Assembly: GCF_039974175.1 (NCBI RefSeq)
Contig: NZ_JBDWJN010000012.1
Coordinates: 60,724-124,723 of the forward strand
Reading direction: 5' to 3'
Length of the DNA: 64,000 nt
Source of the DNA: Maribacter sp.
GTDB taxonomy: Bacteria > Bacteroidota > Bacteroidia > Flavobacteriales > Flavobacteriaceae
Numbering within the stretch: position 1 is the first letter of the stretch; each line of letters opens with the position of its first letter. The position numbers and the translations under genes are program-made. The notes beneath the pieces are model-generated. The model was not told the origin of the DNA, did not search any database, and was given only the letters and a program-made list of their open reading frames with translations. Positions 44,658 through 64,000 of this stretch are shown here, in pieces.

Positions 44658-44716
44658 AACCCGATTGATTGTTACTACGGTCTAGGCTTGTATATCAGTG
44701 CGTGCTGTGTTTTTAC

Positions 44717-45331: not shown

Positions 45332-45343
45332 TATTTGAACTTC
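45330..45343 (-). repeat. Junction motif copy (plus strand aTTATTTGAACTTc; 12/14 to TTTATTTGAACTTT)
   Basis: Lies between the TPR gene stop (45351) and the next start (45331). Confidence 0.7.
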
Positions 45344-45350
45344 ACTATTC

Positions 45351-46472
45351 TTAATTGCAATGTTTTTCTATAAACTCATTCGCGTCAGAATCTCCCAACT
45401 GTATAGCTCTTTTGAAGTCGATACAAGCCTGTGAATTTTGTTTTAGTTCAATTCTTGATTTGCCCCGGTTGCGATATGAAAAGGCATAATTCGGATCGAG
45501 TTCAATTGCCTTATCAAAATCATCCATTGATTCCCTAAAATAACCTAGATTATACTTGGAAAGACCACGATTGTTATATGGTAATGCCATATTAGGAGCC
45601 ATTTGAATTGCTTTTGTAAAATCTTTTATAGAACCCTTATAATCTTTTCGATTACTTCTTACCCGGGCAACTCCTCTATTGATATAAGGTATGGGGTAAC
45701 TAGGATCGACTTTAATTGCTTTAGTGTGGTCCTTTATAGCACTTCTAAAATCATTTTGTTTACTCCTTAAGTTACCTCTATTGGTGTAAGAAATTGCATG
45801 CTTGGGGTCAATTTTAATTGCTCGATTATAATCCGATAGCGCACCGGAAGGATTTTTAAGACTTTCCTTCAGTAAACCTCTATTGCAATAAAAAGGCGCG
45901 TGATTAGGATTAATTGAAAGAGCCTGATTATAATCATCCATCGCACCCTCATAATCTCCTAAATGAAACTTAGACCTACCTCTACCACCGAAAACTAAAT
46001 CACTTCTCAAACCTAATTGAAAAGCCTTATTTAAATCATCCAATGCTTTTTCATAATTCTTCAAATCGTTTTTGGCCGTACCTCGACTAGAATATGCCTC
46101 ACTGTAATCTGACTTTAGGGTAATGGCCTCAGAAAAGTCTTCAATTGCATTTTCGAAGTTCTTAAGCCTTGCTTTGGCAAGACCTCTTTGGTAATATGCT
46201 TCGGGAAATTTGGGGCGAAGTTCCAATGCTGTGGTAAAATCCACAATTGCAGATTCATAGTTCTTGAGATGTAACTTACCTTGCCCAATGTTAAAATATG
46301 CTCCAGGGGAATCGCCTTCATTCTTAATGACCTTTTTAAAATTCCTTATAGATTGTTTGAACTTCCCCTTGGCAAGAAGGAATTGTGCGTTTTTATATAA
46401 TTTACTATCGGTTTGACCTTGTGAAGGAATACAGGCACATAAAAAACAAAGTGTTATAATAAATGGTTTCAT
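45351..46472 (-). CDS. Tetratricopeptide-repeat protein, exported
   Basis: About 9 consecutive 34-aa TPR units (A..Y..RG......Y..A..D...A....P). Confidence 0.85.
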   Translation of the reverse strand: MKPFIITLCFLCACIPSQGQTDSKLYKNAQFLLAKGKFKQSIRNFKKVIKNEGDSPGAYFNIGQGKLHLKNYESAIVDFTTALELRPKFPEAYYQRGLAKARLKNFENAIEDFSEAITLKSDYSEAYSSRGTAKNDLKNYEKALDDLNKAFQLGLRSDLVFGGRGRSKFHLGDYEGAMDDYNQALSINPNHAPFYCNRGLLKESLKNPSGALSDYNRAIKIDPKHAISYTNRGNLRSKQNDFRSAIKDHTKAIKVDPSYPIPYINRGVARVRSNRKDYKGSIKDFTKAIQMAPNMALPYNNRGLSKYNLGYFRESMDDFDKAIELDPNYAFSYRNRGKSRIELKQNSQACIDFKRAIQLGDSDANEFIEKHCN

Positions 46473-46550
46473 TGGTTGGGATTACTTATTAATATTAATT
46501 TAATTTTTGATGAGTAATTAGTATTATCTATAATTTAGAGCTATTCATCG

Positions 46551-46564
46551 TTTAACTGAACTTT
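46551..46564 (-). repeat. Degenerate junction motif copy (TTTAACTGAACTTT; 12/14)
   Basis: Overlaps the stop codon of 46563-47000, upstream of the TPR gene. Confidence 0.45.
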
Positions 46565-47000
46565 AAATGGAGGTGTCTCCAGTCTGAATCAATTTTTTGA
46601 ATTCATTTAATTTGGAATCGCTTGCTCCTATCCAGAACTTTAATTTTTCATCCATGGAGTTTTGATTGATAAATACCATCTGATGAAGATAAAACGGGAT
46701 GCCTAATAACCGTATTCTTGTAGATGTCGACTCGATTGACTTTATCTTCTGTATTTTAACTCTCCTGTTTTCATGTTTGCTTTTTAAATATAAAAAATCA
46801 GAGTCGTAAAAGAAGTTGAATGTAGTAGAATCAATTTTCTTAAGCCAGAAATATGATAGTCCACTTACGCTGACCAAAGCACAAAGTAACCAATAGTAGT
46901 CGTTTCTTAAAAAGACATAGGATAGGAGAAATCCAATTAATCCAAAAATTATTGGAGTAGACATCCGTATGTTTCGATTATTTGCTGAAAGTTCCTTCAC
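46563..47000 (-). CDS. Hypothetical membrane protein
   Basis: Two N-terminal TM segments; GTG at 47000 or ATG at 46964 as start. Confidence 0.5.
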   Translation of the reverse strand: MKELSANNRNIRMSTPIIFGLIGFLLSYVFLRNDYYWLLCALVSVSGLSYFWLKKIDSTTFNFFYDSDFLYLKSKHENRRVKIQKIKSIESTSTRIRLLGIPFYLHQMVFINQNSMDEKLKFWIGASDSKLNEFKKLIQTGDTSI

Positions 47001-47012
47001 AAATTGTTATCC

Positions 47013-47026
47013 TTTATTTGAACTTT
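47013..47026 (-). repeat. Junction motif copy (TTTATTTGAACTTT; 14/14)
   Basis: 13 nt upstream of the GTG at 47000. Confidence 0.8.
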
Positions 47027-47110
47027 GGTTATGCTTACTAAAATAGGCATATCAATTAATCTTTAAAGAACAGAACTATAGCTTTTCATATGAGGTTTTG
47101 TTAGCAACCG

Positions 47111-48037
47111 TTATTTTACCTTCAATAATCGTTGCCGAGCAATATTCCTAAATCCTGTCCAAGCATTTACTGAGTCAAATGGTAAATCCATTTCAATTTG
47201 GTTATCGGTGAACCTTGTTTTCCAATTTCCTCCTTTAGAAATTCCATTGTTAGAGGTCAGTTCAGAGACATTTCCGAGAATCCCATACAATCCATAAATG
47301 TTTGCTCCCAAAGCCATTGCTTCGCATGTTGCAATTCCACATCTACTTTTCTTAATTTTCGTTTTGGCTTTTGAATGGAATTCTGTTGTATTATATAAGT
47401 AATTGTACTTCTTTAATGTTTTTTTATTTTCTCTCCAATTAGAATCAATTCCATTAGGAAAATTTGAGCCCCGTCCGGCGATTAATTCCCATTCATTTTT
47501 GTTCGGTAAAATGTATTCAGGAACTAATATATTTTCTTTGGATATTATCCAGTCGTAATTACCGTTTATATATTTTTCTATTGTAAAATAATTGTCCTTT
47601 GTATAAGTGAATTCGGGTTTAATCAGACCCTTTCTAATTAGTAATATTTCAGCAACCCTATCCGTTCTCCATTTACTAAATAATTCTGCCTGTTTAAGAG
47701 AAATTCCAACAACAGGATACTCAGCAAAATGTGGTTGGGTAAAATACTGTTCATTTAATTTGCCAGAAAATTCGGTGTTATCCCAAATCGATTTATCCAA
47801 CTGTATTTGTTTAAATTCAATAGAGTTTTTTCCAAATATTTCTTCAGTCCAATCTATAAATTCTAGGTACATTACATTGGTGGTTTCTGTTTCGTCGGCA
47901 TAGAGATTTTCATTAATAAATATAAGCCCCGGTCCAGTAACAACTTCATATTGTTGATTGTCAATCATCAAATATTTGGTTGTATCACAGGATGATAAAA
48001 GGATAAAAAAAAGAATTAATGTAATTCTATAAATCAT
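47111..48037 (-). CDS. FGE-sulfatase (SUMF1/GldJ-like) domain lipoprotein
   Basis: LLSSCDTT lipobox; C-terminal NVSELT...KGGNW...AWTGFRNIA pattern of the formylglycine-generating-enzyme fold. Confidence 0.65.
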   Translation of the reverse strand: MIYRITLILFFILLSSCDTTKYLMIDNQQYEVVTGPGLIFINENLYADETETTNVMYLEFIDWTEEIFGKNSIEFKQIQLDKSIWDNTEFSGKLNEQYFTQPHFAEYPVVGISLKQAELFSKWRTDRVAEILLIRKGLIKPEFTYTKDNYFTIEKYINGNYDWIISKENILVPEYILPNKNEWELIAGRGSNFPNGIDSNWRENKKTLKKYNYLYNTTEFHSKAKTKIKKSRCGIATCEAMALGANIYGLYGILGNVSELTSNNGISKGGNWKTRFTDNQIEMDLPFDSVNAWTGFRNIARQRLLKVK

Positions 48038-48081
48038 TTATTAATGGTTGCTAACGGTTGGGCTCGCATGTTAAATTATCC

Positions 48082-48094
48082 TTTATTAAACTTT
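48082..48094 (-). repeat. Variant junction motif copy (TTTATTAAACTTT)
   Basis: Preceded by the same ATCC as the 47013 and 60171 copies; 45 nt upstream of the 48037 start. Confidence 0.5.
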
Positions 48095-48153
48095 AGAAAA
48101 CTTTTAAACGGCTTTGTAAAAGACACCTTAAAGCTTAAGCTTGCTTGCCAAAA

Positions 48154-49005
48154 CTACACATAAACATATAGCGGTGAAACTATTCGTTTTTCTCCATTCC
48201 TTTCGGTCATCGCTAGCTTAGCCGGGTCAGCATTAGGCAATACCACAGTCTTAGTTGTAGTAGCGATATCGGTATACGTTAATTGAAATTTAGGTTTGAT
48301 AATTCCTAAGGGTATTGCAAATTCGCTGGTCAGTTGCCATGCGTTCTGGCCATTTGCAAGGGTGGTTTCTACTGCTTTGCTAAAGGGTATGTCAGCAGCA
48401 CCGTCAATAGATCGAATATTCAATTGCGAAATACCATGGCCAAATATATGATATTGCCAAAGCGTGTGTCTAGTTTCGAAGCGAATTTCAAATTGACCAG
48501 GGCTATTGGTATCAAAAGATGCCTTCATGCTGGCACTAGCAATTTGTAATGTACCCAGCTTAAGTGCATCTGGCTGATCAACAAATCGAGGATGGAGCGT
48601 TACACTTTCATTGTTGCTTTGGTTGAGTTCATCTTCACTTGCATAAACCAAAAGCCCCTGAAAATCTGTGGGAAGCTTGGTATAATTGAAAAAATTGGGG
48701 TCGGTGCTTGCGATATTAAAATCAAGTGGCGCCCTCTCATCGAAATAGGCATCATAAGAAGCTTCGGTTTCGGCATAAAGTTGAACCCCGTTTTGCACCT
48801 GCCTCAGAATAAAAGCATGCCTGGCAAGCAATGCAATTGTAGCTTGGCTGGGGCTACATCGTAAAAAAGAATGCGGCTTATTTTCAAAATAGGCATGCCG
48901 TGCTTGCATTGAAAACAAGAGTTTGTAATTCGTTCTGTTCATTGTTTCGCTTGATTGATTTAGTGATAGTTCTTCATCGTTGAATTGGACTTTAATTCTA
49001 TTCAA
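48154..49005 (-). CDS. Hypothetical cytoplasmic protein (orphan)
   Basis: 283-aa ORF from TTG 49005; ATG at 48942 is an alternative start; no recognisable motif. Confidence 0.55.
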   Translation of the reverse strand: MNRIKVQFNDEELSLNQSSETMNRTNYKLLFSMQARHAYFENKPHSFLRCSPSQATIALLARHAFILRQVQNGVQLYAETEASYDAYFDERAPLDFNIASTDPNFFNYTKLPTDFQGLLVYASEDELNQSNNESVTLHPRFVDQPDALKLGTLQIASASMKASFDTNSPGQFEIRFETRHTLWQYHIFGHGISQLNIRSIDGAADIPFSKAVETTLANGQNAWQLTSEFAIPLGIIKPKFQLTYTDIATTTKTVVLPNADPAKLAMTERNGEKRIVSPLYVYV

Positions 49006-49111
49006 GAATTGAAACGGTAAGCTGGAGACACCACTTTAAAGCCATCCTCATAAGTTTCACCTCTTTCATTCAGACTTCAGGTTCGCACCCTTACCCTAAG
49101 TTGGTATACTT

Positions 49112-49531
49112 TTATTTTTGTTGGTTCAGGTTTTCATCGCTATCAAGTCTTTCATTAAAGGCATTATTTTGCTGAAGTATCTTTTTTTGTTGCATTCCTC
49201 TAATCAAAAAAGAAATTCCCGAAAATGTAATTATAGCACCGAATAATAGAGAAAGAAATAGCAGCACAAAAACTCCTGAGATCATTAAAAAGATACCGTA
49301 ATTAATGTTTTTCTTAGGATGCAGAGAACCCTTTTGAGATTGGGCATTTCCAGCGGCATCAAGTTTAAGATTTAACTTTCTATCAGCTTCTTTTTCATCT
49401 TTCAAGAATAGCTCACAGCTATCTTCAAAGTCAGGTTTTTCATTGGTTAAGGCACAAAGCAGCCCTTTTTCGAAATCAATCTTTCTATTTTGACAAATGG
49501 TACAAAATACGAGTCTTTCATTTAATGTCAT
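49112..49531 (-). CDS. Zinc-ribbon-like N-terminal domain plus two-TM membrane protein
   Basis: CTICQNRK...C...C cysteine pattern, then hydrophobic segments; start set to ATG 49531. Confidence 0.55.
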   Translation of the reverse strand: MTLNERLVFCTICQNRKIDFEKGLLCALTNEKPDFEDSCELFLKDEKEADRKLNLKLDAAGNAQSQKGSLHPKKNINYGIFLMISGVFVLLFLSLLFGAIITFSGISFLIRGMQQKKILQQNNAFNERLDSDENLNQQK

Positions 49532-49547
49532 TAGAATGTTTTTAGCG

Positions 49548-49561
49548 TTTCTTTGAACTTT
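49548..49561 (-). repeat. Junction motif copy (TTTCTTTGAACTTT; 13/14)
   Basis: Lies in the 34-nt gap between the beta-barrel gene stop (49566) and ATG 49531. Confidence 0.65.
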
Positions 49562-49565
49562 TGAG

Positions 49566-50132
49566 TTAGAATCGAAAACCAACCCCAATTTTTAGCAGGT
49601 TGATGTTGGTGTTGAATTTGAGGTCGGGAGCACCGTCAACTGGTGAAAGCTTGATAATATCATAGTGTAGGAGAGCGAAAAATCTGGAGCTGAAATTGAT
49701 CGATAATCCAGCGTTTGCATTAAATCCGCTTTGGTTCTGATTTAAATCGGCACTATCTAATAAAAATGAATTTGCCCTAAAATTCACAAAAGTATACCCT
49801 ATACCCAAGGAGGGTGTGATTTTTTGCAAACCAGGCAAGTGTAACGCTCCAAAAATACCTGGTTGAATAAATAAAGCCTTAACCGTACTTGATTGAGGAA
49901 CTAAATCATTGTCAAAAACCAGGTAACTCCCATTGGCTGATGCGCCTATTTTCACAATACCCGTATCAACAAAACGGTACTGTACCCCCATATCTGCAAC
50001 TCCCGTATAATTTTCACCTATAAAATTCTTATCAATAGGCAAGGGGTAGGATAGGGTTACACTAAATTTAGTGTCTTGCGCATAACTGACGGAAACAAAA
50101 AGAAAACAAACTATAGGTACTAGATATTTCAA
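49566..50132 (-). CDS. Small outer-membrane beta-barrel (porin-family) protein
   Basis: Signal peptide ending SYAQ, alternating beta pattern, C-terminal GVGFRF; TTG start. Confidence 0.65.
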   Translation of the reverse strand: MKYLVPIVCFLFVSVSYAQDTKFSVTLSYPLPIDKNFIGENYTGVADMGVQYRFVDTGIVKIGASANGSYLVFDNDLVPQSSTVKALFIQPGIFGALHLPGLQKITPSLGIGYTFVNFRANSFLLDSADLNQNQSGFNANAGLSINFSSRFFALLHYDIIKLSPVDGAPDLKFNTNINLLKIGVGFRF

Positions 50133-50747
50133 AGTTTAGAGCAAATTGGATTTGATAGCCAAAATTAGCGGTTTTCTAAACTTTTCAACCTAAATTTCGT
50201 CAAAACACATAGGATTGCCCCAATACGAATCTTGACGTCTTGGCAGTTTGGGTTCTCCGGAGGTAAGTAGAGCTTTCTAAATTTTACCTCGACCCTGGCA
50301 CTTTTATTTATTGTCATATGATCCGCGTTTTAAGCTCATGAGCACGCGCCAAAATCAAGCTGAGCCTTTGCTATTTTGTGCGTTTTATCGATAATCACGA
50401 ATTACTGTGGCTTTTTTTATTATTTTACTTACTCTAATACCAACCACTTCCCTATTTGCGGTGATATACCCAAAGTATCAACCCTTGTATAATATTAATT
50501 GTGGTTCGGTGTACCTAAAAACTGAAGATGCCTATTATTCGTTAGTATTTTGAGTTAAAAGATTTATAGAAGTCTTTAGGAATAAGGACAGAACTTAAAT
50601 TGGAAATGAAAAGGTCTGCTGATAATGTGTTTGCCGAAGATTTATTACTTAAAATAATATTTTTGTCAGTTCAAGAGCATATGACAGTAGGCATCAATCT
50701 TAATTTAACATTCTTGTTGAAGTAAATAATTGACTAAAACCTATTGA

Positions 50748-52400
50748 ATGTGGAAAACTAATCTCATTTGGGTTATTTTATATATTGCATTTGTACCACC
50801 AATATTTGGTCAAGACAGTTTTGAGGACAAAACACTGGAGGAAATTGACAAACTAACCCTTGCTGCTTGGCGAAATGGTGATATACAAAAGAGCCGGATT
50901 TATGCAGATTATCAAATAGAAAAAGCTAAAAAATTGAAAGATAGTTTAGCTATAGCGTTTGCCTTTTATACTTACATGTATTCCGAAAATTTTGAAGAAG
51001 CATTAAACTATTGCGATTCCACAATAATCTTTACAAAAAATTCAAAGAACAAATTTTACCCTACGTTAGGATACTTAGTAAAAGGCAAAATATATAAGCA
51101 GAAAAAAATGTTTAAGCTTGCTTTAGACAATTTACTTATTGCAGATAGTTTAGCAAAAGTAAAGCAAAATATCGCCCAACAGTCTTCAGTTAAGCAAGTT
51201 ATTGCCAATATTTATAGTCATTTAGGCAAATATGAGGAAGCCCTTGAAATGCATAAGAAATATTACTTGCAAAAGTCTGAATATGGTGGTGAAAATTGGG
51301 AAATAAGTCGGAACCATACTATAGCACTTTACAATCTATCTTTATCATACCTCAAGGTAAAGAAAAGAGACTCCGCCCGTCTTTTTTATCAGTATGCTGC
51401 AAACAAAGCAGAGCAAGCAAACTTCCATGATTTCTATACCAGCAAACTTGTTAGCATCCATGCTCAAATCGATTTTTACGACAAAAGATACGATAGTGCC
51501 CTAGATACTTTAAGGAAATATAGGTTTGATAATTCCGGCAACTGGTTGGCTAATAACTATTATTATTCAGGTAAAATCCACAGATTTAAAAATAACAATG
51601 ACAAGGCGATTGAGTTCTTTACCAAAATGGATTCAATGCTCACAGCTGATAAGGAGCCCTTTTTTCATGCAAAAGATGGTTTGGCTGAACTTTCAAACAT
51701 TTTTAAAGAACTAGGAGACTCCGAGAACCAGCTAAAATATATTAACAGATATCTATGGGTTGACAGTATTCTTATTGAGCAAAAAGAAACCATTGACCCA
51801 CTTATTGTTAACAAATATCAGAAGCCAATTATGCTTGAAGAAAAGCGGAAACTTCTTGACCAAGCTTCAAGGAAGCAAGTACTTTTAAATTACCTCTATG
51901 TTACCTTAGGTGCCTTTGTGAGTGTAGGGGTTTACTTTGGGATCAAATCACGAGAACATTCCAGAAGAATTCAGTACCTCATTGAAAACGGAATCCCAAC
52001 TTCAAGTGCGTCATCTATTAGAAACAAAACACCCAATTCAATCCCCGAAGAAGTTGCGGAACTTTTAACAAGAGGGCTTGACGAATTTGAAAACGCTAAA
52101 CTATTCTTGGACAAAGAACTTACCCTATCAAATTTGGCGAAACAATTTGATACCAATTCAACTTATTTATCAAAATACATTAATGAGAAAAAAGGGGAAA
52201 ATTTTCCTAGTTATATAAAAGGTTTAAGAATAAAATATGCCATAGAAGCACTTAAAGAAAATCCCGGCTTACTTAAATTCAATATTAAAGGTCTGGCCTC
52301 AGAATTTGGATTCCAAACACCTGATGCCTTCTCACGGGCATTTCAAAAAGAAACCAATGTGAAGCCGTCACAGTTTATTAAACAACTTCGAAAACTCTAA
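50748..52400 (+). CDS. TPR-containing, membrane-anchored AraC-type HTH regulator
   Basis: Signal/TM, TPR-like repeats, one TM near aa 390, C-terminal LASEFGFQTPDAFSRAFQKETNVKPSQF. Confidence 0.75.
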   Translation: MWKTNLIWVILYIAFVPPIFGQDSFEDKTLEEIDKLTLAAWRNGDIQKSRIYADYQIEKAKKLKDSLAIAFAFYTYMYSENFEEALNYCDSTIIFTKNSKNKFYPTLGYLVKGKIYKQKKMFKLALDNLLIADSLAKVKQNIAQQSSVKQVIANIYSHLGKYEEALEMHKKYYLQKSEYGGENWEISRNHTIALYNLSLSYLKVKKRDSARLFYQYAANKAEQANFHDFYTSKLVSIHAQIDFYDKRYDSALDTLRKYRFDNSGNWLANNYYYSGKIHRFKNNNDKAIEFFTKMDSMLTADKEPFFHAKDGLAELSNIFKELGDSENQLKYINRYLWVDSILIEQKETIDPLIVNKYQKPIMLEEKRKLLDQASRKQVLLNYLYVTLGAFVSVGVYFGIKSREHSRRIQYLIENGIPTSSASSIRNKTPNSIPEEVAELLTRGLDEFENAKLFLDKELTLSNLAKQFDTNSTYLSKYINEKKGENFPSYIKGLRIKYAIEALKENPGLLKFNIKGLASEFGFQTPDAFSRAFQKETNVKPSQFIKQLRKL

Positions 52401-52500
52401 TTAAGCGACGATTTGCAAATGAAAAGCAAGGAGAATTTTTTTTGGAATTTGCTGCTCAAAAAATAGTAGTGAGGCCGGTGCTCCGGATTAAAATTAATAG

Positions 52501-52528
52501 TTTAGTTGTCGTAACTAAATATTTAGTT
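52501..52528. promoter_or_regulatory. Candidate BlaI-type operator (TTTAGTT-N5-AACTAAA plus a third TTTAGTT half-site)
   Basis: 7-5-7 inverted repeat at 52501-52519 and a direct half-site at 52522-52528, 12 nt upstream of the GTG start. Confidence 0.4.
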
Positions 52529-52539
52529 ATATTTATATC

Positions 52540-52917
52540 GTGACGAACATTAAATTAACCAAGGCGGAAGAATCGGTTCTCAAAATTCTTTGGGAAAAAG
52601 AAAAAGCCTTTATCAAAGAAATCATAGCAGAAATACCGGGCAAAAAACCGGCATACTCTACCGTTTCTACCATTGTACGTATACTAGAACGCAAAGGCTA
52701 TGTCGCCTATGAAAGTTTTGGAAAAAGCCACCGGTATTACCCCTTGATACAACGCGAAGACTATACCAAGGGCGTACTTTCTCATATGATGAATACCTAT
52801 TTCGGGGGTGATTTTAAACAAATCGTAAGTTTTATGTCGAACTCCAACAACATTTCGATCGCAGAACTTGATGAAATTTTGTCTGAACTAAAAAAAGAAA
52901 AGCTAAATGGTACTTGA
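52540..52917 (+). CDS. BlaI/MecI/CopY-family transcriptional repressor
   Basis: Winged-helix pattern (LTKAEESVLKILW...STVSTIVRILERKGYV); GTG start. Confidence 0.85.
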   Translation: MTNIKLTKAEESVLKILWEKEKAFIKEIIAEIPGKKPAYSTVSTIVRILERKGYVAYESFGKSHRYYPLIQREDYTKGVLSHMMNTYFGGDFKQIVSFMSNSNNISIAELDEILSELKKEKLNGT

Positions 52918-54127
52918 TAGCAATGCCATTCTTATCACAGTGGGTATCACCGGCCTCGGGCTGCTGCTTTATGAGGTGTTGTTAAAATATGCTGTACCCA
53001 CAAAGGGTATTCGATTGTACTTCTATTTCCTTTTTGCGCTTCATATCGTGGCCTTTCTAGACCTTGATATCCTTAACGAATTACACTTTGCTGGCGGTTT
53101 GACCACTTTGCATTTAGAAACCTATATCAAGCCTATTGACCTTGATGCACCAATAGGAAATCGCTTAGAAAATACGGTGGTACTCCTTTATGTTTCGGGG
53201 GTAGCTTTCGGCTTGCTCAAAATGACGCTCGGCATTGTCAAGCTGATCAAGCTAATACGCATGTCCTCCGCCGGAAAACACAAATTTGAAAGATTGGTGC
53301 CGGTTTCCAATTTTCAACCTTGCACTTTTTTCAACTACATCTTAATGCCGACCGATCTTCCAAAAACCCTCTATGATACGGTATATCAACATGAACGTTA
53401 TCATGTGCGTCAGTTACATACGCTTGATATGGTGTTATGGCGTTTGTTAAGTGTGCTCTTTTGGTTTAATCCGTTCGTGCATATCATTCGATCAAGGCAG
53501 TCACAAAATTTAGAGTACGACACTGATGCCTATATCACCCAATCAATTCCGAAAGACTACTACTGTGCACAATTGTTGCGTTCGACCTTTAATTCGCGAA
53601 AAATTGATTTTTTCCCCATGTTTAACCGATCTAATGTTTATCGTAGAATTAAAAGGCTACAGCAGTATCGCGACCGAAAAAGACCTTGGTCTAACTTGAC
53701 TTTACTGCTTGCTGTCGTACTACTTTTTACAGGTACCATGATGTCAAAAGCCAGTTTGTTACCGCAGACGCGAACGGGTATGGCCAATACTATCTCAAAA
53801 CCTGAATTTCCACCTGAGGGCCTAGGGTATTATATAGACTCGGTCTTGCAAGCCCGTATCGGAGATACATTCGATGACATAAATACAAGTTATAGGTTGC
53901 AGCTCTTCTTAGACATCACTATTGATGAAAAAGGAAAGGTCATCAAGGTGCGTACTGATGATAGCCAATCTAAACAAGCAGGTGATACCAATACCAACTA
54001 CGTTATAAGCAAGCTGTTACTAGAAACTATAGCAAATATGCCCCCTTGGATACCCGCTAAACAAAACAACAGGGCGGTTAGATCAACCATACATGAAGAA
54101 TTTCTTTTTACAGGTGAAAGCGAATAA
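52907..54127 (+). CDS. M56-family (BlaR1-like) membrane metallopeptidase/sensor
   Basis: HExxH (YQHERYHVRQLH) after TM segments; overlaps the blaI-like gene by 11 nt. Confidence 0.8.
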   Translation: MVLDSNAILITVGITGLGLLLYEVLLKYAVPTKGIRLYFYFLFALHIVAFLDLDILNELHFAGGLTTLHLETYIKPIDLDAPIGNRLENTVVLLYVSGVAFGLLKMTLGIVKLIKLIRMSSAGKHKFERLVPVSNFQPCTFFNYILMPTDLPKTLYDTVYQHERYHVRQLHTLDMVLWRLLSVLFWFNPFVHIIRSRQSQNLEYDTDAYITQSIPKDYYCAQLLRSTFNSRKIDFFPMFNRSNVYRRIKRLQQYRDRKRPWSNLTLLLAVVLLFTGTMMSKASLLPQTRTGMANTISKPEFPPEGLGYYIDSVLQARIGDTFDDINTSYRLQLFLDITIDEKGKVIKVRTDDSQSKQAGDTNTNYVISKLLLETIANMPPWIPAKQNNRAVRSTIHEEFLFTGESE

Positions 54128-58119: not shown

Positions 58120-58150
58120 CCTCTTGATGCACCCTTAGGTCGATGTAGCA

Positions 58151-58178
58151 AACAAAAAACCCTTCAATTTCTTGAAGG
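58151..58178 (-). terminator. Hairpin plus T-run (minus-strand orientation), possible terminator of the 58.5-64 kb operon
   Basis: CCTTCAA (58161-58167) / TTGAAGG (58172-58178), 4-nt loop; minus strand continues GTTTTTTGTTT; about 325 nt past the PhyH stop. Confidence 0.45.
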
Positions 58179-58254
58179 ATTAATCATTACTATTGTGGAC
58201 CCCCTAATTATAAGTCAGAAAATAATTGTTTTCAATACTCCTATTCTTTACTAT

Positions 58255-58272
58255 TCCTTCCAATTGGAAGGA
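58255..58272. repeat. Perfect 18-bp palindrome TCCTTCCAATTGGAAGGA
   Basis: Read directly; lies in the 384-bp convergent intergenic region. Confidence 0.85.
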
Positions 58273-58503
58273 TAGAGAGGAGAAAAGATATATATGTTTT
58301 TAGGTATTTACTATTCACTCGTAACTAGACTTATTAAAATACTCTTGTTTTATGCAACTCTTAACACTACACCTTTCGAACATGGCTTCAGGAGTGTAAT
58401 TGTCGCCCATAAAAAATACCACAAAGAAGTATATCTCTTTGCAAAATTCGCTTTATGTAAAGAGTTTAAAGTCATCCTTCATTTGAATGTTAAGTAAATT
58501 GAG

Positions 58504-59226
58504 TTAAACTATTTCTAGTCTTTCCTTCCAATCTAATTCTTCAGGTAATGGTTTATCACAAAACTCAAGATGAATTACCCTTCTGTTGCTATGACCCGAC
58601 GCTTTACTTGATGCATGAAAGGTAAGTGGCCTCATTAACATTATACCGCCTGATTTCACTTCACAGGTAAACTCTTTGCTATTTTGCGAGCGTTCTTCCG
58701 TCCTAACTACTCCGTTTAAATGTGATTCTGGGACAACCCTTAATGCTCCATTAGTTTCATCAGTATCATCTAGATGAATTCGTATTGTAATTGTTCTATC
58801 TAAATACTCTGTTGGAGGTTGAACTCCAATTTGGCCTCTCTTATTAGTCCAATTTTTGAACCCTTCTATTTGCTTTTGTTCAATTACATTGATTGTTAAG
58901 TCTTGATGATATGCTACGAACCAATTTGAACCTTCGAGCTTGTCAAAATAGATGGCTTTGCTTAAGAACAATTTACCTTCCTGATGAAGTTTAACTAATA
59001 GTCTTCTTAGATTTTTATTAAATAATACTCTTGCCAGTTCTGGAATCTCATTTACTAATTCCCTAATCGCAAAAAGGTCTTTCGACTTTGAAATCGAATT
59101 GCTATCCAATTCTTTTTCAGCTATCACTTTAGTTATTTCGAATATCTCAGACTCAGAATAGACATTAGGAATAATTGAGTAACCCTTATTATTCAGTTGT
59201 GATATATGTTCATTCACTTTCATCAT
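58504..59226 (-). CDS. Phytanoyl-CoA dioxygenase (PhyH) family Fe(II)/2-oxoglutarate dioxygenase
   Basis: HxD (AYHQDL) and distal His (LTFHAS) in a 240-aa PhyH-like layout. Confidence 0.72.
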   Translation of the reverse strand: MMKVNEHISQLNNKGYSIIPNVYSESEIFEITKVIAEKELDSNSISKSKDLFAIRELVNEIPELARVLFNKNLRRLLVKLHQEGKLFLSKAIYFDKLEGSNWFVAYHQDLTINVIEQKQIEGFKNWTNKRGQIGVQPPTEYLDRTITIRIHLDDTDETNGALRVVPESHLNGVVRTEERSQNSKEFTCEVKSGGIMLMRPLTFHASSKASGHSNRRVIHLEFCDKPLPEELDWKERLEIV

Positions 59227-59239
59227 TTATTTGAACTCT
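59226..59239 (-). repeat. Junction motif copy (TTTATTTGAACTCT; 13/14)
   Basis: Abuts the ATG at 59226, in the 27-nt gap after the stop at 59254. Confidence 0.75.
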
Positions 59240-59253
59240 AGTTTAGCATTCAA

Positions 59254-59715
59254 TTAATTATCCGTTTGCTGGAGCTGCCATTTTATCTCTTTATCATTTA
59301 GGTTTGGATATCTATCACTTACTTGAAAATCAACAGAGTCAAACATAAAATTGGCAATGTCGAAAATATGCTTGTCATTTGAATTTAATACAAATTTCAG
59401 CATCTCAGAAACCGACGCCGCGGCATTAAGTGCCAAAAATCCAATCAATTCGCCATAATCTTCGGTATCTGGAGTAACAGATTTTATCTTCAGAATTAAA
59501 TCGTTGATTTCTTTTTCTGAGAATTTGGACTTCTCATATTTTCGACAAACATCGATACCCTTTTCAAGTAATTCAGGGTTTCCAAAGTCATTTAGTTCGT
59601 AAAACTTTAAGTATTCGGGATAAATCCGTTCACAAATTTGAATGGCAAAATTCAGCTTCCTTTTGAAGGAAATCTTTTGGAGGTTATTTCGTAACTGAAT
59701 ATGATATTTAATCAA
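59254..59715 (-). CDS. YjaG/DUF416-like protein
   Basis: FAIQICERIYPEYLKFYELNDFG resembles my recollection of the E. coli YjaG N-terminal block (CERMYPNY...GFG); TTG start. Confidence 0.55.
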   Translation of the reverse strand: MIKYHIQLRNNLQKISFKRKLNFAIQICERIYPEYLKFYELNDFGNPELLEKGIDVCRKYEKSKFSEKEINDLILKIKSVTPDTEDYGELIGFLALNAAASVSEMLKFVLNSNDKHIFDIANFMFDSVDFQVSDRYPNLNDKEIKWQLQQTDN

Positions 59716-59726
59716 ATTTTCTATGA

Positions 59727-59740
59727 TTTATTTGAACTTT
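59727..59740 (-). repeat. Junction motif copy (TTTATTTGAACTTT; 14/14)
   Basis: Lies in the 32-nt gap between stop 59748 and TTG 59715. Confidence 0.8.
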
Positions 59741-59747
59741 GATTTCA

Positions 59748-60158
59748 TCATATCGGCTTAAAATGAACTTCGACATTTGGTATTCCAGGAGGGTCATTTT
59801 CACCAGATACAAGAATCAATATTAATTTGCTTTCATCAATTGATTTAATCCTAGATGTAATCTTATCTTTTATTGAAAGTTCGACATACTTATTTTCAGG
59901 AAAATATTTCCAAATTCCACTCTCATTATTGCCATCTTTTCGAATCAAGTCATATTTACCATCTGAAATAAATTTGAAATCAAAGTCGGCTGCTCCTGGC
60001 ATCTGTTTGATTTTCATTCCACCCATTAAGGCATATTCAATTTGCCACTGCTTACATAAAACTGTTTCTAACTGTGTTTTACTTAAACCAATATCTTGGG
60101 CGGATAGGCCATTACTCAGTCCCACTAAAAACCCAAAAATTAAGAGTATTCCTTTCAT
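59748..60158 (-). CDS. Lipocalin-like small exported protein
   Basis: Signal peptide MKGILLIFGFLVGLSNGLSAQ; start set to ATG 60158. Confidence 0.5.
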   Translation of the reverse strand: MKGILLIFGFLVGLSNGLSAQDIGLSKTQLETVLCKQWQIEYALMGGMKIKQMPGAADFDFKFISDGKYDLIRKDGNNESGIWKYFPENKYVELSIKDKITSRIKSIDESKLILILVSGENDPPGIPNVEVHFKPI

Positions 60159-60170
60159 ATATTTTAATCC

Positions 60171-60184
60171 TTTATTTGAACTTT
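60171..60184 (-). repeat. Junction motif copy (TTTATTTGAACTTT; 14/14)
   Basis: Lies in the 28-nt gap between stop 60187 and ATG 60158. Confidence 0.8.
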
Positions 60185-60186
60185 TA

Positions 60187-60909
60187 TTAACTAAACAGTC
60201 TAGCAAAAAAACCTTTCTTCTTTTTCTTAATCACCCAAATCAATTCATTTGGATGTCGTTTGGTTAAATTATTAGGTCCAAATTTCCCCCAAGCAAATCC
60301 ATCTTTATTCTTTGCTTTTCTCATATCCGCAACTACCCACTCGTTTCCTTCAAATTCGCTCAGAAACTTATTAAATTCTTTGTTGCTAAGTACAAAGGCC
60401 TCTTTTTCAAAAATAGAACCGCCGCTTGACCAAATGTCAAATACAACTTTGTCATGTATTTCGTTCAGATAGTTTTCTGATGGAGATTCATAAAACTCAA
60501 TCAAACCGTTTAGAAACTCATTTAGAGTATCTGAATACTTTACAAAAACAGCTGGGTCATGACATGCATAGTATACTTGCCCAAGGGTTCCGTCGTCCAA
60601 AATATCTAGTATCCAAAAATTACCAAATCCATCATGGCCAAGAGTTATAGAGTTTGGAGATAATTCTAAAAATCCGAATTGACCTATTGATGAAAAATCA
60701 ACTTGCTCCAAACCGTATCCTTCCCATCCTCTTGTCTCCTTCAATATCTCGACAAGCTCGATATCAATAATGTTGCTTGGAAATAAGTTTGAAAGGTCTT
60801 TAACTTCAGAATCAGTTAATCCTGCTTGGAAGTCGAGATCGTATTCTTCCCCATCTTCATCCGTAAAGGTTGCTCCTCTTAACTTTTTAATGATTTCGAG
60901 ATTTTTCAT
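60187..60909 (-). CDS. SMI1/KNR4 (SUKH-1) family protein
   Basis: GHDGFGNFWILDILDDGTLGQVYYACHD core typical of SUKH; ATGA overlap with the upstream gene. Confidence 0.7.
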   Translation of the reverse strand: MKNLEIIKKLRGATFTDEDGEEYDLDFQAGLTDSEVKDLSNLFPSNIIDIELVEILKETRGWEGYGLEQVDFSSIGQFGFLELSPNSITLGHDGFGNFWILDILDDGTLGQVYYACHDPAVFVKYSDTLNEFLNGLIEFYESPSENYLNEIHDKVVFDIWSSGGSIFEKEAFVLSNKEFNKFLSEFEGNEWVVADMRKAKNKDGFAWGKFGPNNLTKRHPNELIWVIKKKKKGFFARLFS

Positions 60910-63404
60910 CTATTAATTTGGCTAATTATTGTCCTATCCTTGATTTTCGTGTCTTCAGCTAACATGAATGCCTTACTTAAAATGACCGATAGGGTAGTAT
61001 CTCCTTCAAAAGGCAAGAATACATTATCCTTACTCTTAGATCTATCAGCTACAATACACAAATATTGATCATTTGGCTTCATTAAGATATTACCACTACC
61101 CATATGAATTTTGTAAATTCTTAAACTCCCCTTTACAACAAGAAAATTGCCTTCGAAAGAGCATTGACCAGCAATCTTTAGTTTGGGAATAATATTTTCA
61201 AGAAGTTTCTTTCTCTCCTTTCCACTAATGGCAAGATCTCCAAATGAAAAGTCAGACCAATATCCATGAAATCTTTCTTCTCCGCCATCTCTCCAGTTCG
61301 GGTCCGCACCAATGCTTGTAACACCAACAAAGAGGTCAACATCTCTCATTGCTTCTGAAAAAACAATAGCTGGAACATTAGCCATATCGACTTGACTTTC
61401 TTCATCATAAAACCGTACTTGATCCGTTTGCAAATAATTGAAAATAGCTGATTCATTTGCAGATCCTTCAACACCATCTGCCCAAAATTCTATGCTATAT
61501 TTCCAAGCAGGTATTTTTAAAGTAGGCGTATTATGAGAGTCCCACTGACCTTGAAGGGTATACCCCCATCCACGCTCTCTACAAAGGGCGATAAAAATAT
61601 GCTGTCTTAAAATATGTGCAGCAAACCGATTAGAATAACTGTTTGTGTTTTTCTCTGCATCGGTGACAATATATAGTTCACGGTGTGCTTGCTTGAATGG
61701 CTGTTTTACTTCATTCGTCTCTAACCAGTTCCGCCAAGATTGGACTTCTTCTACTGAAGCGTTTACCGGGTGCCATAATTCAACTTTGGCGTTTTCAAAA
61801 CTTTCTAAGATTACTCCATTATAGCTTACAAACTCATTGCTTCTAAAAATAGCGCTGGTAGTCTTGTTGTCTATCGTAAAACTCCAAATCAGTTTCGTGC
61901 CAAAAAAACCTAAAAGCTTATTTTCTATATAGAGTTTTTTCCATTGGTCATACTCCCATTCTCGTTTGCCTAAAAAAATCTTTTCTATTCTGCTTTTTTG
62001 GGCAGTTAGATTTGATTGAATGTCTTTTATTTTTTTCTTAAAATCTTTTAATTCCTCAGGATAATTATCCTTTACATATTTGGGAATCGACTTAATTTGT
62101 TTGCCTTTATCGTTTTGCCATAGTAAACTAAAAGTAGAGCTATTTACAATTACTCCTAACCCTATGTAATTACCAAAATTTTGAATTAATTGGTAGTTGG
62201 CATCTAAGCCAAAATCTTGAACGGCAAGTTCTTCAATCTCATCCATGGTTTTTCCCTCGGCTTTGGCGACTCTGCCGATAGCCTTACCAATGGTGTTTCT
62301 TACCGATGGGTATTTGATTTTCATTCTAAATTTTGTGAGTCGAGAGATGCCATCTTGGTACGGTAGTTTTGAAAAAGCATAAATACAACCATTACCAAGT
62401 TTTACACTGACTGCACCGTGACCTGATAGTTTTTTAAAGCTCCATAATCCTAAATCTTCAATAGATTGATTTAAATCTTTATCATTAATAAGAGCTCCAC
62501 TCCAAACTGCCGCCCTTAATAATTGAAGGTTCTCATCAGAAACAAAACGAAATTCGTAGCTCCTATCCTTATGTATCTTTTGGAATATGCCGATGATTGC
62601 TTCAATCCATAAAATGAAATTTTTTGACAATTCTTTCTTACCAATATTTTCTATTTGTGTATCAGAAGACTTTAGCCAAGAAATGGTAGGTGTACTTTTT
62701 TCGCTTCCCTTTGCGAAATGCTTTAAAAGGTTTTGAAAGAGAAGTTGCTTATCTGTTTTAAAAGAACGAATCGTGCTATCAATACTTTTTCCTAATTTAT
62801 CTCTTGTATCAATAGAGAATTCGGTAGGTTTTTGTCTAATGCTCTTTATGCGCTTAAGAATTTTTTGTTCATCAGAATAGATATAGTTCCGTTTTGAAAT
62901 TGCGCTTTTAATTACAACTAAACATTGATTTAAGGTAGAATTAAGTCCTTCTTCTTGAGACCTTTGTTGTATTTTACTAAGAATTGGATTAAACGGCCAT
63001 TCAGAAATATGAAAATAACCTCTTTTCTTAGAGACAAATCCCTTAACAAGATCTAGCAACTCTTCATCGCTAAAACTTAATTCAGAAGACCTTACCGACA
63101 GACTCAATGTTCTAGACCATATATCTTTTACCCAATAGGAAGAATTTGCCCATGGCCCGCCGTCATTTGCAAGTCCGTTTTTATTATTGATTAATGCAAA
63201 AATGAATTCTTTTTTAAACTCTTCTGGTTTGTTTTTAAGTTCCTTGTACTTAGTTACCCTAGTTAGTTTTACACTATAGTCCTCCCTCTTTTCAAGGGCC
63301 TCTTCGGTAAAATCTTTTAAAAATTTACGTACGTCATCACTCACATGGAAAGTAGCCTTTTGCTCTTTTTCATACCCAAATAATTTTTTAAAAGCATCTA
63401 ACAT
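60906..63404 (-). CDS. DUF4132-domain protein (MolR/YehI-like), 832 aa
   Basis: C-terminal third carries the KQPFKQAHRELY... block I associate with DUF4132; N-terminal about 500 aa unassigned. Confidence 0.65.
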   Translation of the reverse strand: MLDAFKKLFGYEKEQKATFHVSDDVRKFLKDFTEEALEKREDYSVKLTRVTKYKELKNKPEEFKKEFIFALINNKNGLANDGGPWANSSYWVKDIWSRTLSLSVRSSELSFSDEELLDLVKGFVSKKRGYFHISEWPFNPILSKIQQRSQEEGLNSTLNQCLVVIKSAISKRNYIYSDEQKILKRIKSIRQKPTEFSIDTRDKLGKSIDSTIRSFKTDKQLLFQNLLKHFAKGSEKSTPTISWLKSSDTQIENIGKKELSKNFILWIEAIIGIFQKIHKDRSYEFRFVSDENLQLLRAAVWSGALINDKDLNQSIEDLGLWSFKKLSGHGAVSVKLGNGCIYAFSKLPYQDGISRLTKFRMKIKYPSVRNTIGKAIGRVAKAEGKTMDEIEELAVQDFGLDANYQLIQNFGNYIGLGVIVNSSTFSLLWQNDKGKQIKSIPKYVKDNYPEELKDFKKKIKDIQSNLTAQKSRIEKIFLGKREWEYDQWKKLYIENKLLGFFGTKLIWSFTIDNKTTSAIFRSNEFVSYNGVILESFENAKVELWHPVNASVEEVQSWRNWLETNEVKQPFKQAHRELYIVTDAEKNTNSYSNRFAAHILRQHIFIALCRERGWGYTLQGQWDSHNTPTLKIPAWKYSIEFWADGVEGSANESAIFNYLQTDQVRFYDEESQVDMANVPAIVFSEAMRDVDLFVGVTSIGADPNWRDGGEERFHGYWSDFSFGDLAISGKERKKLLENIIPKLKIAGQCSFEGNFLVVKGSLRIYKIHMGSGNILMKPNDQYLCIVADRSKSKDNVFLPFEGDTTLSVILSKAFMLAEDTKIKDRTIISQINR

Positions 63405-63407
63405 AGA

Positions 63408-63800
63408 CTATCCTCCAACTAATTGCGTAAGTTTTACAAAACTAATCGCTGTTGTTTTACCTACTAAAACCTCTTGTTCTAAGTCTTCAGCTTGTTGATT
63501 ATTTATAAGTATGAAATACCCATTCTTTTGAAAGGCATCTAAAGCAGTCCAGATTTGTTTTTCTACATCGATTTTCTTTTCCCTTCTCTTTAGCCGAAAC
63601 CCATTTAAAGTCTTCTCCGCTTCAGAAGGTTGAATAAGTCCTTTAAAATATTCAGGTAGTTTTTCATTGTAGGATTTCACCTCAGAAGCTACACGGGCGG
63701 CAATAAGGTCTTTGACCGTGGTACGTTCGTTTTGAACTGCAATCTCTATTTCATTTAAAATATCTCCTGAGAAGGTGGCATCTTTTATAGTAATAACCAT
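63408..63800 (-). CDS. ThiS/MoaD-like beta-grasp candidate ending in Gly-Gly (130 aa, with an internal insert)
   Basis: N-terminal VITIKD...ERTTVKDLIAARV and C-terminal ILINNQQ...VGKTTAISFVKLTQLVGG-stop mimic the ThiS/MoaD pattern; 3-nt gap to the DUF4132 gene. Confidence 0.5.
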   Translation of the reverse strand: MVITIKDATFSGDILNEIEIAVQNERTTVKDLIAARVASEVKSYNEKLPEYFKGLIQPSEAEKTLNGFRLKRREKKIDVEKQIWTALDAFQKNGYFILINNQQAEDLEQEVLVGKTTAISFVKLTQLVGG

Positions 63801-63918
63801 ATCATATTTTTCTTGAATGTATTCATTTTTTGACTTTCTACGATAATTTCTCGATGAGATTAATTTAAATCCTAGTAATTGACAGCTTTTACCAATTTCT
63901 TTGTAATTCGTTTTAAAA

Positions 63919-64000
63919 TCAAAACTTCAAACTCCCAACCTCAAGTTCATCTTCTTCTTTGTCAAGTCTTACAACCGTTATTTTACGTTCTTCATTTGGC
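63919..64000 (-). CDS. 3' end of a further minus-strand ORF truncated by the window edge
   Basis: Open frame ...PNEERKITVVRLDKEEDELEVGSLKF-stop (TGA at 63919-63921); only 26 codons are visible. Confidence 0.3.
   Translation of the reverse strand, partial: PNEERKITVVRLDKEEDELEVGSLKF

Follow-up and report, generated by a model that had tools for sequence, protein, structure and literature searches.

A small protein ending in Gly-Gly and a giant DUF4132-DUF7737 protein, encoded side by side in the flavobacterium Maribacter sp. (NCBI RefSeq assembly GCF_039974175.1, contig NZ_JBDWJN010000012.1), seem on balance to form an uncharacterised two-component module of a ubiquitin-like or sulfur-carrier-like kind, which in this organism is followed by an unrelated accessory cassette. 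The window, meaning the whole 64,000-nt stretch that was analysed, carries the pair (g1 and g2) and the downstream genes (g3 to g6) on the minus strand at 58504-64000, the part examined here. An earlier note on this DNA had singled out a Gly-Gly-ended beta-grasp protein beside a DUF4132 giant as unusual and undescribed. The note was right on this point, and the pair proves to be deeply conserved as well. As judged by comparison of gene order and sequence, g1 and g2 are an obligate, translationally coupled unit.

The evidence for this unit begins with a scan of one genome per GTDB species, in which an alignment of the giant served as the query. The scan yielded at least 584 confirmed matches, from which 79 loci with 10-kb flanks were kept. 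The resulting census covers 81 loci with a complete giant open reading frame (ORF), all of whose ORFs were searched with the six window proteins. These loci span Bacteroidota, Planctomycetota, Verrucomicrobiota, Cyanobacteria, Acidobacteriota, Chloroflexota, Gemmatimonadota, Armatimonadota, Deinococcota, Actinomycetota and Myxococcota, and a Novosphingobium megaplasmid that also bears the pair extends the range to the Alphaproteobacteria. A g1 homologue is present in 75 of the 81 loci, usually 0-10 nt from the giant. In 62 of them it is the gene immediately before the giant, in the same orientation, at distances that mostly fall in the range -11 to +30 nt (median about 4 nt); in 5 it comes directly after a longer giant (about 1,110 aa), and in 8 it is elsewhere in the locus. 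Three of the six loci without a homologue end at a contig edge. Near the pair, the SUKH gene g3, the g4 gene and the PhyH gene g6 each have homologues in 0 of 81 loci, and the DUF416 gene g5 in one. When all neighbours within six genes were clustered without supervision, the small protein was the sole recurrent family. The small Gly-Gly protein and the SUKH gene had both been put forward as possible constant neighbours of DUF4132 homologues; the former is one, whereas the latter is not.

A close relative shows where the unit begins and ends. The nearest homologue of the giant (P0001, on contig L001) is 97% identical at the amino acid level and has a 130-aa gene 3 nt upstream. Upstream of that pair is an intact WYL/WCX regulator gene that faces divergently oriented RNA-repair genes (RlaP-RlaP-RtcB), and downstream there is a gene for an AraC regulator. 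When the window was compared with this contig by blastn, the homology (95% at the nucleotide level) covered exactly 60908-63913, which amounts to the two genes and a leader of about 110 nt. In Maribacter sp. BPC-D8, likewise, only the pair is retained. What the window leader still has of the WYL gene is a decayed stretch of its final 14 codons or so, in which TAC has become TAG; this remnant reads KRITKKLVKAVNY in the window against KRIAKKLVKAVSYYDLN in the L001 WYL protein, each followed by a stop. The upstream ORF that ends at 63919, already recorded by the earlier note and confirmed here, is unrelated to this WYL gene, which it replaces. Taken together, the decayed remnant and the unrelated ORF point to a rearranged upstream flank or an insertion in the window genome. 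The census, the clustering and the difference in flanks from L001 jointly identify the g1-g2 pair as the conserved unit.

The small protein is constant in length across phyla (129-136 aa), and its family closes with F-[VIL]-[KR]-L-x-x-L-[VIM]-G-G followed by the stop codon. Ten residues are invariant across phyla, namely V41, E62, N66, Q103, L107, F121, L124, L127, G129 and G130, the last two in all of 26 cross-phylum sequences. The Gly-Gly ending is found in 74 of the 78 small-protein ORFs of the locus census, the other four being an assembly frameshift (L004), a protein with 13 residues beyond Gly-Gly (L055) and two unexplained cases (a second copy in L081, and L051). Among the 150 best family representatives, nearly all terminate at the last position of the profile. 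Gly-Gly is thus the natural terminus of g1, so that no removal of a propeptide would be required. Two variant C-termini may be mentioned here. The small gene of an Akkermansiaceae locus (L055, 830-1273) reads LVGG before its 13 further residues, and on a Bacteroides finegoldii plasmid (L112, 1-48) the upstream gene ends in FIRLAMLSGRLW with no Gly-Gly terminus; these could be diverged forms, processed forms or sequencing errors.

No family in Pfam, NCBIfam or PADLOC accommodates g1. A single-sequence search recovers 503 related proteins and a cross-phylum profile at least 4,547; the family counts 2,310 clusters at 50% identity, 1,208 of them at E <= 1e-10. All members are unnamed, and almost every one is a stand-alone protein close to 130 aa long. 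The sole apparent fusion, a 969-aa "DUF4132-Ubl fusion" (P0338; Ubl, ubiquitin-like protein), turned out to be a frameshift read-through artefact. Likewise, a 757-aa ORF ending in Gly-Gly (L074) has an extension with no domain match and is probably an ORF-calling artefact of a high-GC genome.

An AlphaFold2 (AF2) model of g1, with a predicted local distance difference test score (pLDDT) of 71.8, has a beta-grasp topology. Strands at residues 2-9 and 14-21 are followed by a long helix (29-52), an insert of low confidence that bears the conserved motif LVQPT-AE-TLNG, a second helix (79-91), three more strands and a floppy tail (126-130). When the model was compared with the PDB by Foldseek, the top 50 matches were nearly all ubiquitin, NEDD8, SUMO, ISG15 and MoaD/MOCS2A, with best values of 0.99 for the probability and 0.64 for the template modelling (TM) score to the target (5mpo_A). 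The beta-grasp fold that had been proposed for g1 from its sequence is therefore supported by prediction, at moderate confidence. A Pfam scan of g1 at E <= 0.1 gave a sub-threshold match to MComp1 as its sole result, and a profile search of the PDB with g1 found no Ubl.

Turning to g2, its assignment to DUF4132 in the earlier note is borne out by a solid Pfam match (PF13569; E 6e-46, 157 bits), to which DUF7737 can be added (PF24879; E 4e-41, 139.6 bits), the gathering cut-off of both families being 27 bits. The order DUF4132-then-DUF7737 recurs in g2 homologues. The AF2 model (pLDDT 74) consists of a solenoid over residues 1-400, an alpha/beta DUF4132 region over 405-570 and, between 745 and 832, a beta-rich DUF7737 region followed by helices. 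Conservation is concentrated at the C-terminal end, where the last 280 residues show 51-67% identity between phyla and contain the majority of the invariant polar residues. Among these residues of the C-terminal end are R575, E576, E584, H597, E684, R687, D688, D690, D701, H767, C783 and D802, and the motifs around H767 and C783 persist in the divergent Deinococcus protein. Foldseek with the g2 model retrieved only generic ARM/HEAT repeats and no relative for the C-terminal module, and profile searches of the C-terminal region against PDB sequences and Pfam returned only DUF4132 and DUF7737 themselves. The protein as a whole likewise has no relative by sequence in the PDB. Some Verrucomicrobiota and Planctomycetota have tandem giant paralogues with one small gene, or two small genes near one giant; examples of such multi-copy loci are L029 (12017-14458), L033 (7178-9763) and L060, the last with two small genes.

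Candidate partners of the pair were surveyed by running Pfam on its 101 same-strand, closely spaced neighbours. The top family was ThiF with 3 members, and vWA also had 3. In 3 of the 81 loci, a MoeB/ThiF-like gene of 194-236 aa overlaps the stop codon of the giant or begins 3 nt after it. The best NCBIfam matches of these linked activating enzymes (E1s) are MoeB, ThiF, MoeZ and the SAMP-activating E1 UbaA, and not TcdA. Because they score under the MoeB/ThiF equivalog cut-offs, they appear to represent a distinct E1 subfamily that is dedicated to the module. No MoxR, WGR or integrase gene recurs among the neighbours in the 81 loci.

The pair has an orthologue in Deinococcus radiodurans, the only member with experimental data. 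DR_A0165 is a 134-aa protein that ends in LTALAGG and matches the g1 family profile (hhalign probability 97.7%, E 2.5e-12); DR_A0166 starts 2 nt after it and is composed of DUF5724, DUF4132 and DUF7737. Compared with the window pair, the Deinococcus giant is twice as long owing to the extra N-terminal DUF5724, the C-terminal parts of the giants are about 29% identical, and the small protein ends in LAGG instead of LVGG. The DR_A0165-DR_A0166 operon is preceded by a radiation/desiccation response motif (RDRM) operator and is bound by DdrO, and mitomycin C induces the DRA0166 protein in an IrrE-dependent manner (PMC8533742). An 83-aa truncated form of DR_A0165 has been studied as the "small peptide" SEP068184. 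Its level rises after irradiation, it binds the neighbouring thioredoxin in vitro, and its predicted fold resembles MOCS2A, SAMP1, Urm1-like and MoaD entries, in independent agreement with the g1 model; the authors deemed the peptide Deinococcus-specific (PMC9650054). The published Deinococcus work made no connection of SEP068184 to a Gly-Gly terminus, Ubl chemistry or DUF4132. A search by locus tag did not find DR_A0166 in the published co-immunoprecipitation supplement for DR_A0165 partners, a result that is uninformative. Overall, the literature on DUF4132 is almost empty, and for the g1 family it consists of two Deinococcus papers only.

In the D. radiodurans genome (chromosome II, also "plasmid 3"; L108, 249-11089), the pair stands directly behind the thioredoxin gene trxC and less than 5 kb from modA (molybdate transport), thiD and the thiazole synthase gene thiG. 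These neighbours, seen in a single genome, are suggestive of a sulfur-carrier role. In Meiothermus sp. (L068), the small gene at 8984 is preceded, at a distance of about 27 nt, by a perfect RDRM-like palindrome, TTATGCTAAGAACATAA, a sequence match which suggests that Deinococcota in general have kept the pair under DdrO control. Outside Deinococcota, a regular-expression scan for six known LexA/SOS motif types upstream of the pair found none.

Among characterised systems, the pair most resembles the sulfur carriers MoaD, ThiS and CysO and the dual-function Ubls Urm1, SAMP and TtuB, with which it shares a small beta-grasp protein with a native, unprocessed Gly-Gly. A MoeB/ThiF/UbaA-like E1, coupled to the pair in three operons, is a further point in common with the MoaD/Urm1/SAMP group, and Urm1/SAMP-type systems and the pair alike have no linked conjugating enzyme (E2), ligase (E3) or deubiquitinase (DUB). 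Unlike the MoaD/Urm1 group, g1 has no sequence membership in these families and possesses a second helix and the conserved insert of about 30 residues. Its obligate partner is an 830-aa solenoid-DUF4132-DUF7737 protein instead of MoaE, ThiG or CysM, and the E1 is usually unlinked. Escherichia coli YehI/MolR has DUF4132 in common with g2 (21% identity over aa 352-591) but contains neither DUF7737 nor the conserved C-terminal module. Its locus includes yehF (WGR) and yehLMPQ (MoxR-vWA-SWIM), whereas the window contains no partners of this type and they do not recur in the 81 loci. YehK, a small protein encoded next to YehI, was considered as the E. coli counterpart of g1 and rejected, as it has no Gly-Gly ending and no similarity to g1. 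Since YehI is without DUF7737 and YehK without Gly-Gly, the Gly-Gly partner tracks the DUF4132-plus-DUF7737 architecture and not DUF4132 alone.

These features can be combined into a working mechanism. A MoeB/ThiF-type E1 would adenylate the C-terminal glycine of g1. The operon itself encodes this enzyme in a few Bacteroidota; in the window organism its gene presumably lies at another site in the genome. The activated tail of g1, as an acyl-adenylate or a thiocarboxylate, would then be handled by the conserved C-terminal module of g2, with g2 acting either as a dedicated acceptor or conjugation factor, comparable to the situation with Urm1, SAMP and TtuB, or as a "synthase" partner in the way that MoaE serves MoaD. 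The solenoid of g2 may recruit clients. The Deinococcus data suggest that the module is deployed in the response to DNA damage and oxidative stress, and it could have the same use outside Deinococcota. A bolder version, put forward tentatively, would make g1 an unrecognised, widespread bacterial Ubl modifier and g2 an enzyme of a new class that handles Ubls (a ligase, an E2/E3-like factor or an obligate conjugation platform), in a minimal two-gene system for protein modification that relies on a borrowed MoeB/ThiF-type E1 and is activated when DNA or oxidative damage occurs.

Several observations weigh against a carrier or modifier module. For g1, the insert of about 30 residues is disordered and the pLDDT of the model is only 72; the Foldseek E-values are weak (0.02-0.15), as expected because of the insert; and the protein matches no ThiS/MoaD (PF02597), ubiquitin (PF00240) or Urm1 family in Pfam. 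For g2, residues 574-724, its best-conserved part, are modelled at a pLDDT below 50 and match nothing, and a catalytic role of the C-terminal module is only putative. No E1 is linked to the pair in 78 of the 81 loci, no ThiF-like ORF occurs in the 64-kb window, and neither neighbour clustering nor the Pfam census revealed a recurrent E2, JAB/DUB, rhodanese or MoaE/ThiG-like partner. The partners of E1, E2, JAB and MoxR/vWA type that the earlier note had envisaged therefore materialised in part: a ThiF/MoeB-type E1 is present in three loci, but no E2, JAB or MoxR/vWA gene recurs. Knockout of the small gene in Deinococcus gave a mild phenotype, with greater H2O2 tolerance (PMC9650054), and as canonical LexA boxes were not found in other phyla, control by DNA damage is documented for Deinococcota only. 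Lastly, the ATGA overlap of g2 and g3 may mean that the SUKH gene, or the cassette, is co-expressed with the pair in this genome.

The main rival explanation is non-covalent and appears rather unlikely. It holds that g1 is a bound regulatory or structural subunit of g2 whose Gly-Gly plugs a pocket in its partner, without adenylation, thiocarboxylation or conjugation. Many beta-grasp domains serve as adaptors, and the translational coupling of the pair suggests stoichiometric co-production. That the best-conserved region of g2 is poorly modelled alone would be expected if it folds against a partner, and the 78 loci with no linked E1, E2 or DUB fit such a subunit as well. However, the precise placement of Gly-Gly at the end of the chain in about 2,300 clusters from more than 10 phyla is a hallmark of the carboxylate chemistry of ThiS, MoaD, Urm1, SAMP and ubiquitin, and non-GG beta-grasp adaptors normally do not keep their terminus conserved. 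Translational coupling of a MoeB/ThiF-like adenylyltransferase in three independent Bacteroidota operons also argues for that chemistry, and the subunit explanation is weakened by the strict terminal Gly-Gly and the linked E1s together. A narrower form of the carrier module itself, in which g1 is thiocarboxylated and g2 serves as a "synthase" of a new type that inserts sulfur to make a cofactor or a thio-modified nucleoside, with no protein conjugation, we judge unlikely. The top TM-scores to MoaD/MOCS2A (0.64 to the target, probability 0.99), the closeness of the linked E1s to MoeB, ThiF and MoeZ, the native Gly-Gly terminus without a propeptide, which is typical for sulfur carriers, and the presence of trxC, modA, thiD and thiG near the Deinococcus operon all speak for it. 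So does an old "molR" molybdate phenotype tied to the E. coli DUF4132 locus, as cited in PMC8533742, but this link may not transfer, given that YehI is without DUF7737 and without a Gly-Gly partner. Against sulfur insertion, the pair has no linked gene for a rhodanese, a cysteine desulfurase or a known synthase, no known sulfur-insertion enzyme resembles a solenoid protein of 830 aa, and the Deinococcus molybdenum-cofactor genes are not co-regulated (PMC8533742).

Two further explanations invoke conflict. According to the earlier note, all six genes (those for the Gly-Gly protein, DUF4132, SUKH, a secreted protein, DUF416 and PhyH) belong to one system, which would make them a conflict or defence operon of a new type. 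SUKH domains are often immunity proteins, and the genes are closely spaced in one orientation, with an ATGA overlap, a common junction repeat, a single terminator-like hairpin and a uniformly low G+C content. By the standard that the note itself had set, conservation of the neighbourhood, this proposal fails across the 81 loci: the four downstream genes are neighbours of the pair in 0, 0, 1 and 0 of them, and the 24 metagenome loci with g3 homologues hold none of the other five genes. The 95%-identical copy of the pair is flanked differently, and copies of the junction motif also stand before unrelated genes at a distance of 12-15 kb. Searches for signs of conflict, including the polymorphic-toxin setting that had been suggested, were negative: the six proteins have no match in PADLOC-DB v2 at E <= 0.1, tblastn of the giant against phage genomes found no homologue, and no toxin-like ORF was seen at 58.1-64.0 kb or in the contexts of g3 homologues. 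With SUKH/SMI1-KNR4 immunity genes and poly-immunity loci, g3 has in common its marginal SUKH-1 match and its place in an AT-rich run of small unrelated genes, but it differs from them in having no adjacent toxin gene. A six-gene system is accordingly extremely unlikely. The other explanation takes the pair as a minimal anti-phage system like Bil, Bub or CBASS-Cap2, with phage proteins as the targets of Ubl conjugation, and also has a very low probability. Ubl conjugation has known roles in bacterial defence (PMC10557695, PMC10097602), the flanks of the pair differ in close relatives, and some copies are on plasmids or megaplasmids. Bil, Bub and CBASS Cap2/Cap3 loci likewise combine a beta-grasp protein that has a reactive-looking Gly terminus with a compact operon, but they encode an E1 (often fused to E2), an E2 and a JAB or other DUB beside the Ubl. 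The pair loci are without these, including any linked E1 with a catalytic-Cys domain, and the PADLOC search was empty. Moreover, the neighbours are ordinary metabolic and regulatory genes instead of defence islands, cross-phylum conservation is very high whereas defence genes usually diversify fast, and the Deinococcus orthologue is in a DNA-damage regulon.

The remaining genes, g3 to g6, are by sequence comparison a lineage-specific accessory cassette outside the conserved module. The assignment of g3 to SUKH stands by a narrow margin, with a Pfam match to SMI1_KNR4 (PF09346) over aa 62-134 that scores 27.1 bits against a cut-off of 25.4. The DUF416 and PhyH assignments of g5 and g6 are borne out by solid Pfam matches (E 1.5e-13 and 6.5e-16, respectively), and g4 has no match in Pfam or PDB sequences and no family in NCBIfam or PADLOC, so that its lipocalin-like character, proposed in the earlier note, is neither backed nor contradicted by these searches. 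An alternative g4 ORF from a TTG codon covers 59748-60206 (152 aa); the ATG at 60158 is the more likely start and yields the signal-peptide-like N-terminus MKGILLIFGFLVGLSNGLSAQD. In the SUKH-centred metagenome scan, g3 homologues occur as single genes in heterogeneous contexts, surrounded by unrelated genes of a housekeeping type or by small accessory genes, and the idea that g3 to g6 form a conserved module of their own was ruled out, as no co-occurrence was seen. The only other locus with a DUF416 gene beside the pair is L022, where it lies at 4560-5084 on the minus strand, convergent and right after a GG-DUF4132-ThiF operon; this is probably a coincidence. Coordinates of all features are collected in Table 1.

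Table 1. Coordinates of the pair, its accessory genes and associated features; nucleotide positions are those of the window unless a locus handle (L) is given.
Feature	Position	Strand	Description
g1	63408..63800	-	130 aa, ends LVGG; ubiquitin/MoaD-like beta-grasp (predicted); core member 1 of the pair
g2	60906..63404	-	832 aa; solenoid + DUF4132 + DUF7737; core member 2 of the pair
g2 alpha-solenoid	aa 1-400	-	AF2 model
g2 DUF4132	aa 434-613; nt 61566-62105	-	Pfam
g2 conserved C-terminal module	aa 570-832; nt 60909-61697	-	cross-phylum alignment; DUF7737 at its end
g2 DUF7737	aa 729-830; nt 60915-61220	-	Pfam
g3	60187..60909	-	240 aa; SUKH-1/SMI1_KNR4-like; accessory
g4	59748..60158	-	136 aa counted from ATG at 60158; signal-peptide-like N-terminus; accessory
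g5	59254..59715	-	153 aa; DUF416 (YjaG-like); accessory
g6	58504..59226	-	240 aa; PhyH-family Fe(II)/2-oxoglutarate dioxygenase; accessory
Leader of the pair	63801..63913	-	presumed promoter region of g1 and g2; 95% conserved against L001
WYL/WCX gene remnant (3', decayed)	63860-63913	-	blastn alignment to L001
Junction repeat, 27 nt, 3 copies	60162-60188, 59718-59744, 59217-59243	-	core AGTTCAAATAAA
Intrinsic-terminator-like hairpin + T-run	58148..58181	-	320 nt past the g6 stop codon
MoeB/ThiF/UbaA-like adenylyltransferase	L010 12436-13134		Cyclobacteriaceae
MoeB/ThiF/UbaA-like adenylyltransferase	L075 12562-13272		Flavobacterium
MoeB/ThiF/UbaA-like adenylyltransferase	L022 3880-4464		Bacteroidota

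The layout of the six minus-strand ORFs agrees with the description in the earlier note, as do the junctions and the downstream hairpin with its T-run (58158-58181), which is terminator-like and on the minus strand. Between g1 and g2 there are 3 nt, and the g2 stop and the g3 start share an ATGA; the g3/g4, g4/g5 and g5/g6 gaps measure 28, 32 and 27 nt, and each holds AGTTCAAATAAA within the 27-nt repeat. Every copy of this repeat sits just upstream of the start codon of g4, g5 or g6, with the 12-mer AGTTCAAATAAA 8-25 nt away from it. Exact copies of the core occur on the minus strand at 60182, 59738, 59237, 47024 and 45341, and copies with one mismatch at 49559, 42072 and 2731. The minus strand carries all eight window matches that have no more than one mismatch, each of them near a start codon, whereas the chance expectation for a given 10-mer in 128 kb is well under 1. 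Since its core 10-mer also precedes two unrelated genes starting at 47000 and 45331, in another AT-rich block, the repeat looks like a signal for expression or for a cassette that is local to this genome, rather than the mark of a system; the repeat may act in translation initiation or as a cassette signal.

The low G+C content that had been noted for the region is real (34.1% at 58504-64000 against 40.0% in the remaining window) but has a parallel elsewhere in the window, at 44-53 kb, where G+C is just as low (32-37%). This second AT-rich block (44700-53000, 32-37% G+C) has the junction motif in common with the g3-g6 cassette. Its genes are mostly on the minus strand and encode a TPR protein, a protein with an FGE-sulfatase domain, an outer membrane protein (OMP) beta-barrel and several proteins without a family match. 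Between the stop codon of the PhyH gene and the terminator-like hairpin lie 320 nt of non-coding DNA (58182-58503), within which there is a perfect 16-nt palindrome, CCTTCCAATTGGAAGG, at 58256-58271. An Rfam scan of the region, including this tail, gave no matches.

Bacterial Ubls that end in Gly-Gly are known in two settings, as sulfur carriers with defined synthases and in anti-phage conjugation with an E1, an E2 and a DUB. The pair described here fits neither setting. It is of a known kind in that a Gly-Gly-terminated beta-grasp protein would work with an E1-type activator, and it is new in its obligate DUF4132-DUF7737 partner, its freedom from any known synthase, E2 or DUB, its broad distribution and the lack of a family description. 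The C-terminal domain of g2 ranks among the most conserved and least understood protein modules of bacteria, and recognition of the pair gives DUF4132 and DUF7737 a concrete, testable biochemical hypothesis. SEP068184 can in turn be re-read as a truncated Ubl, and the DNA-damage response of bacteria would thereby involve a Ubl. Were the giant to be a Ubl ligase or acceptor of a new kind, the prokaryotic antecedents of ubiquitin signalling would gain a branch.

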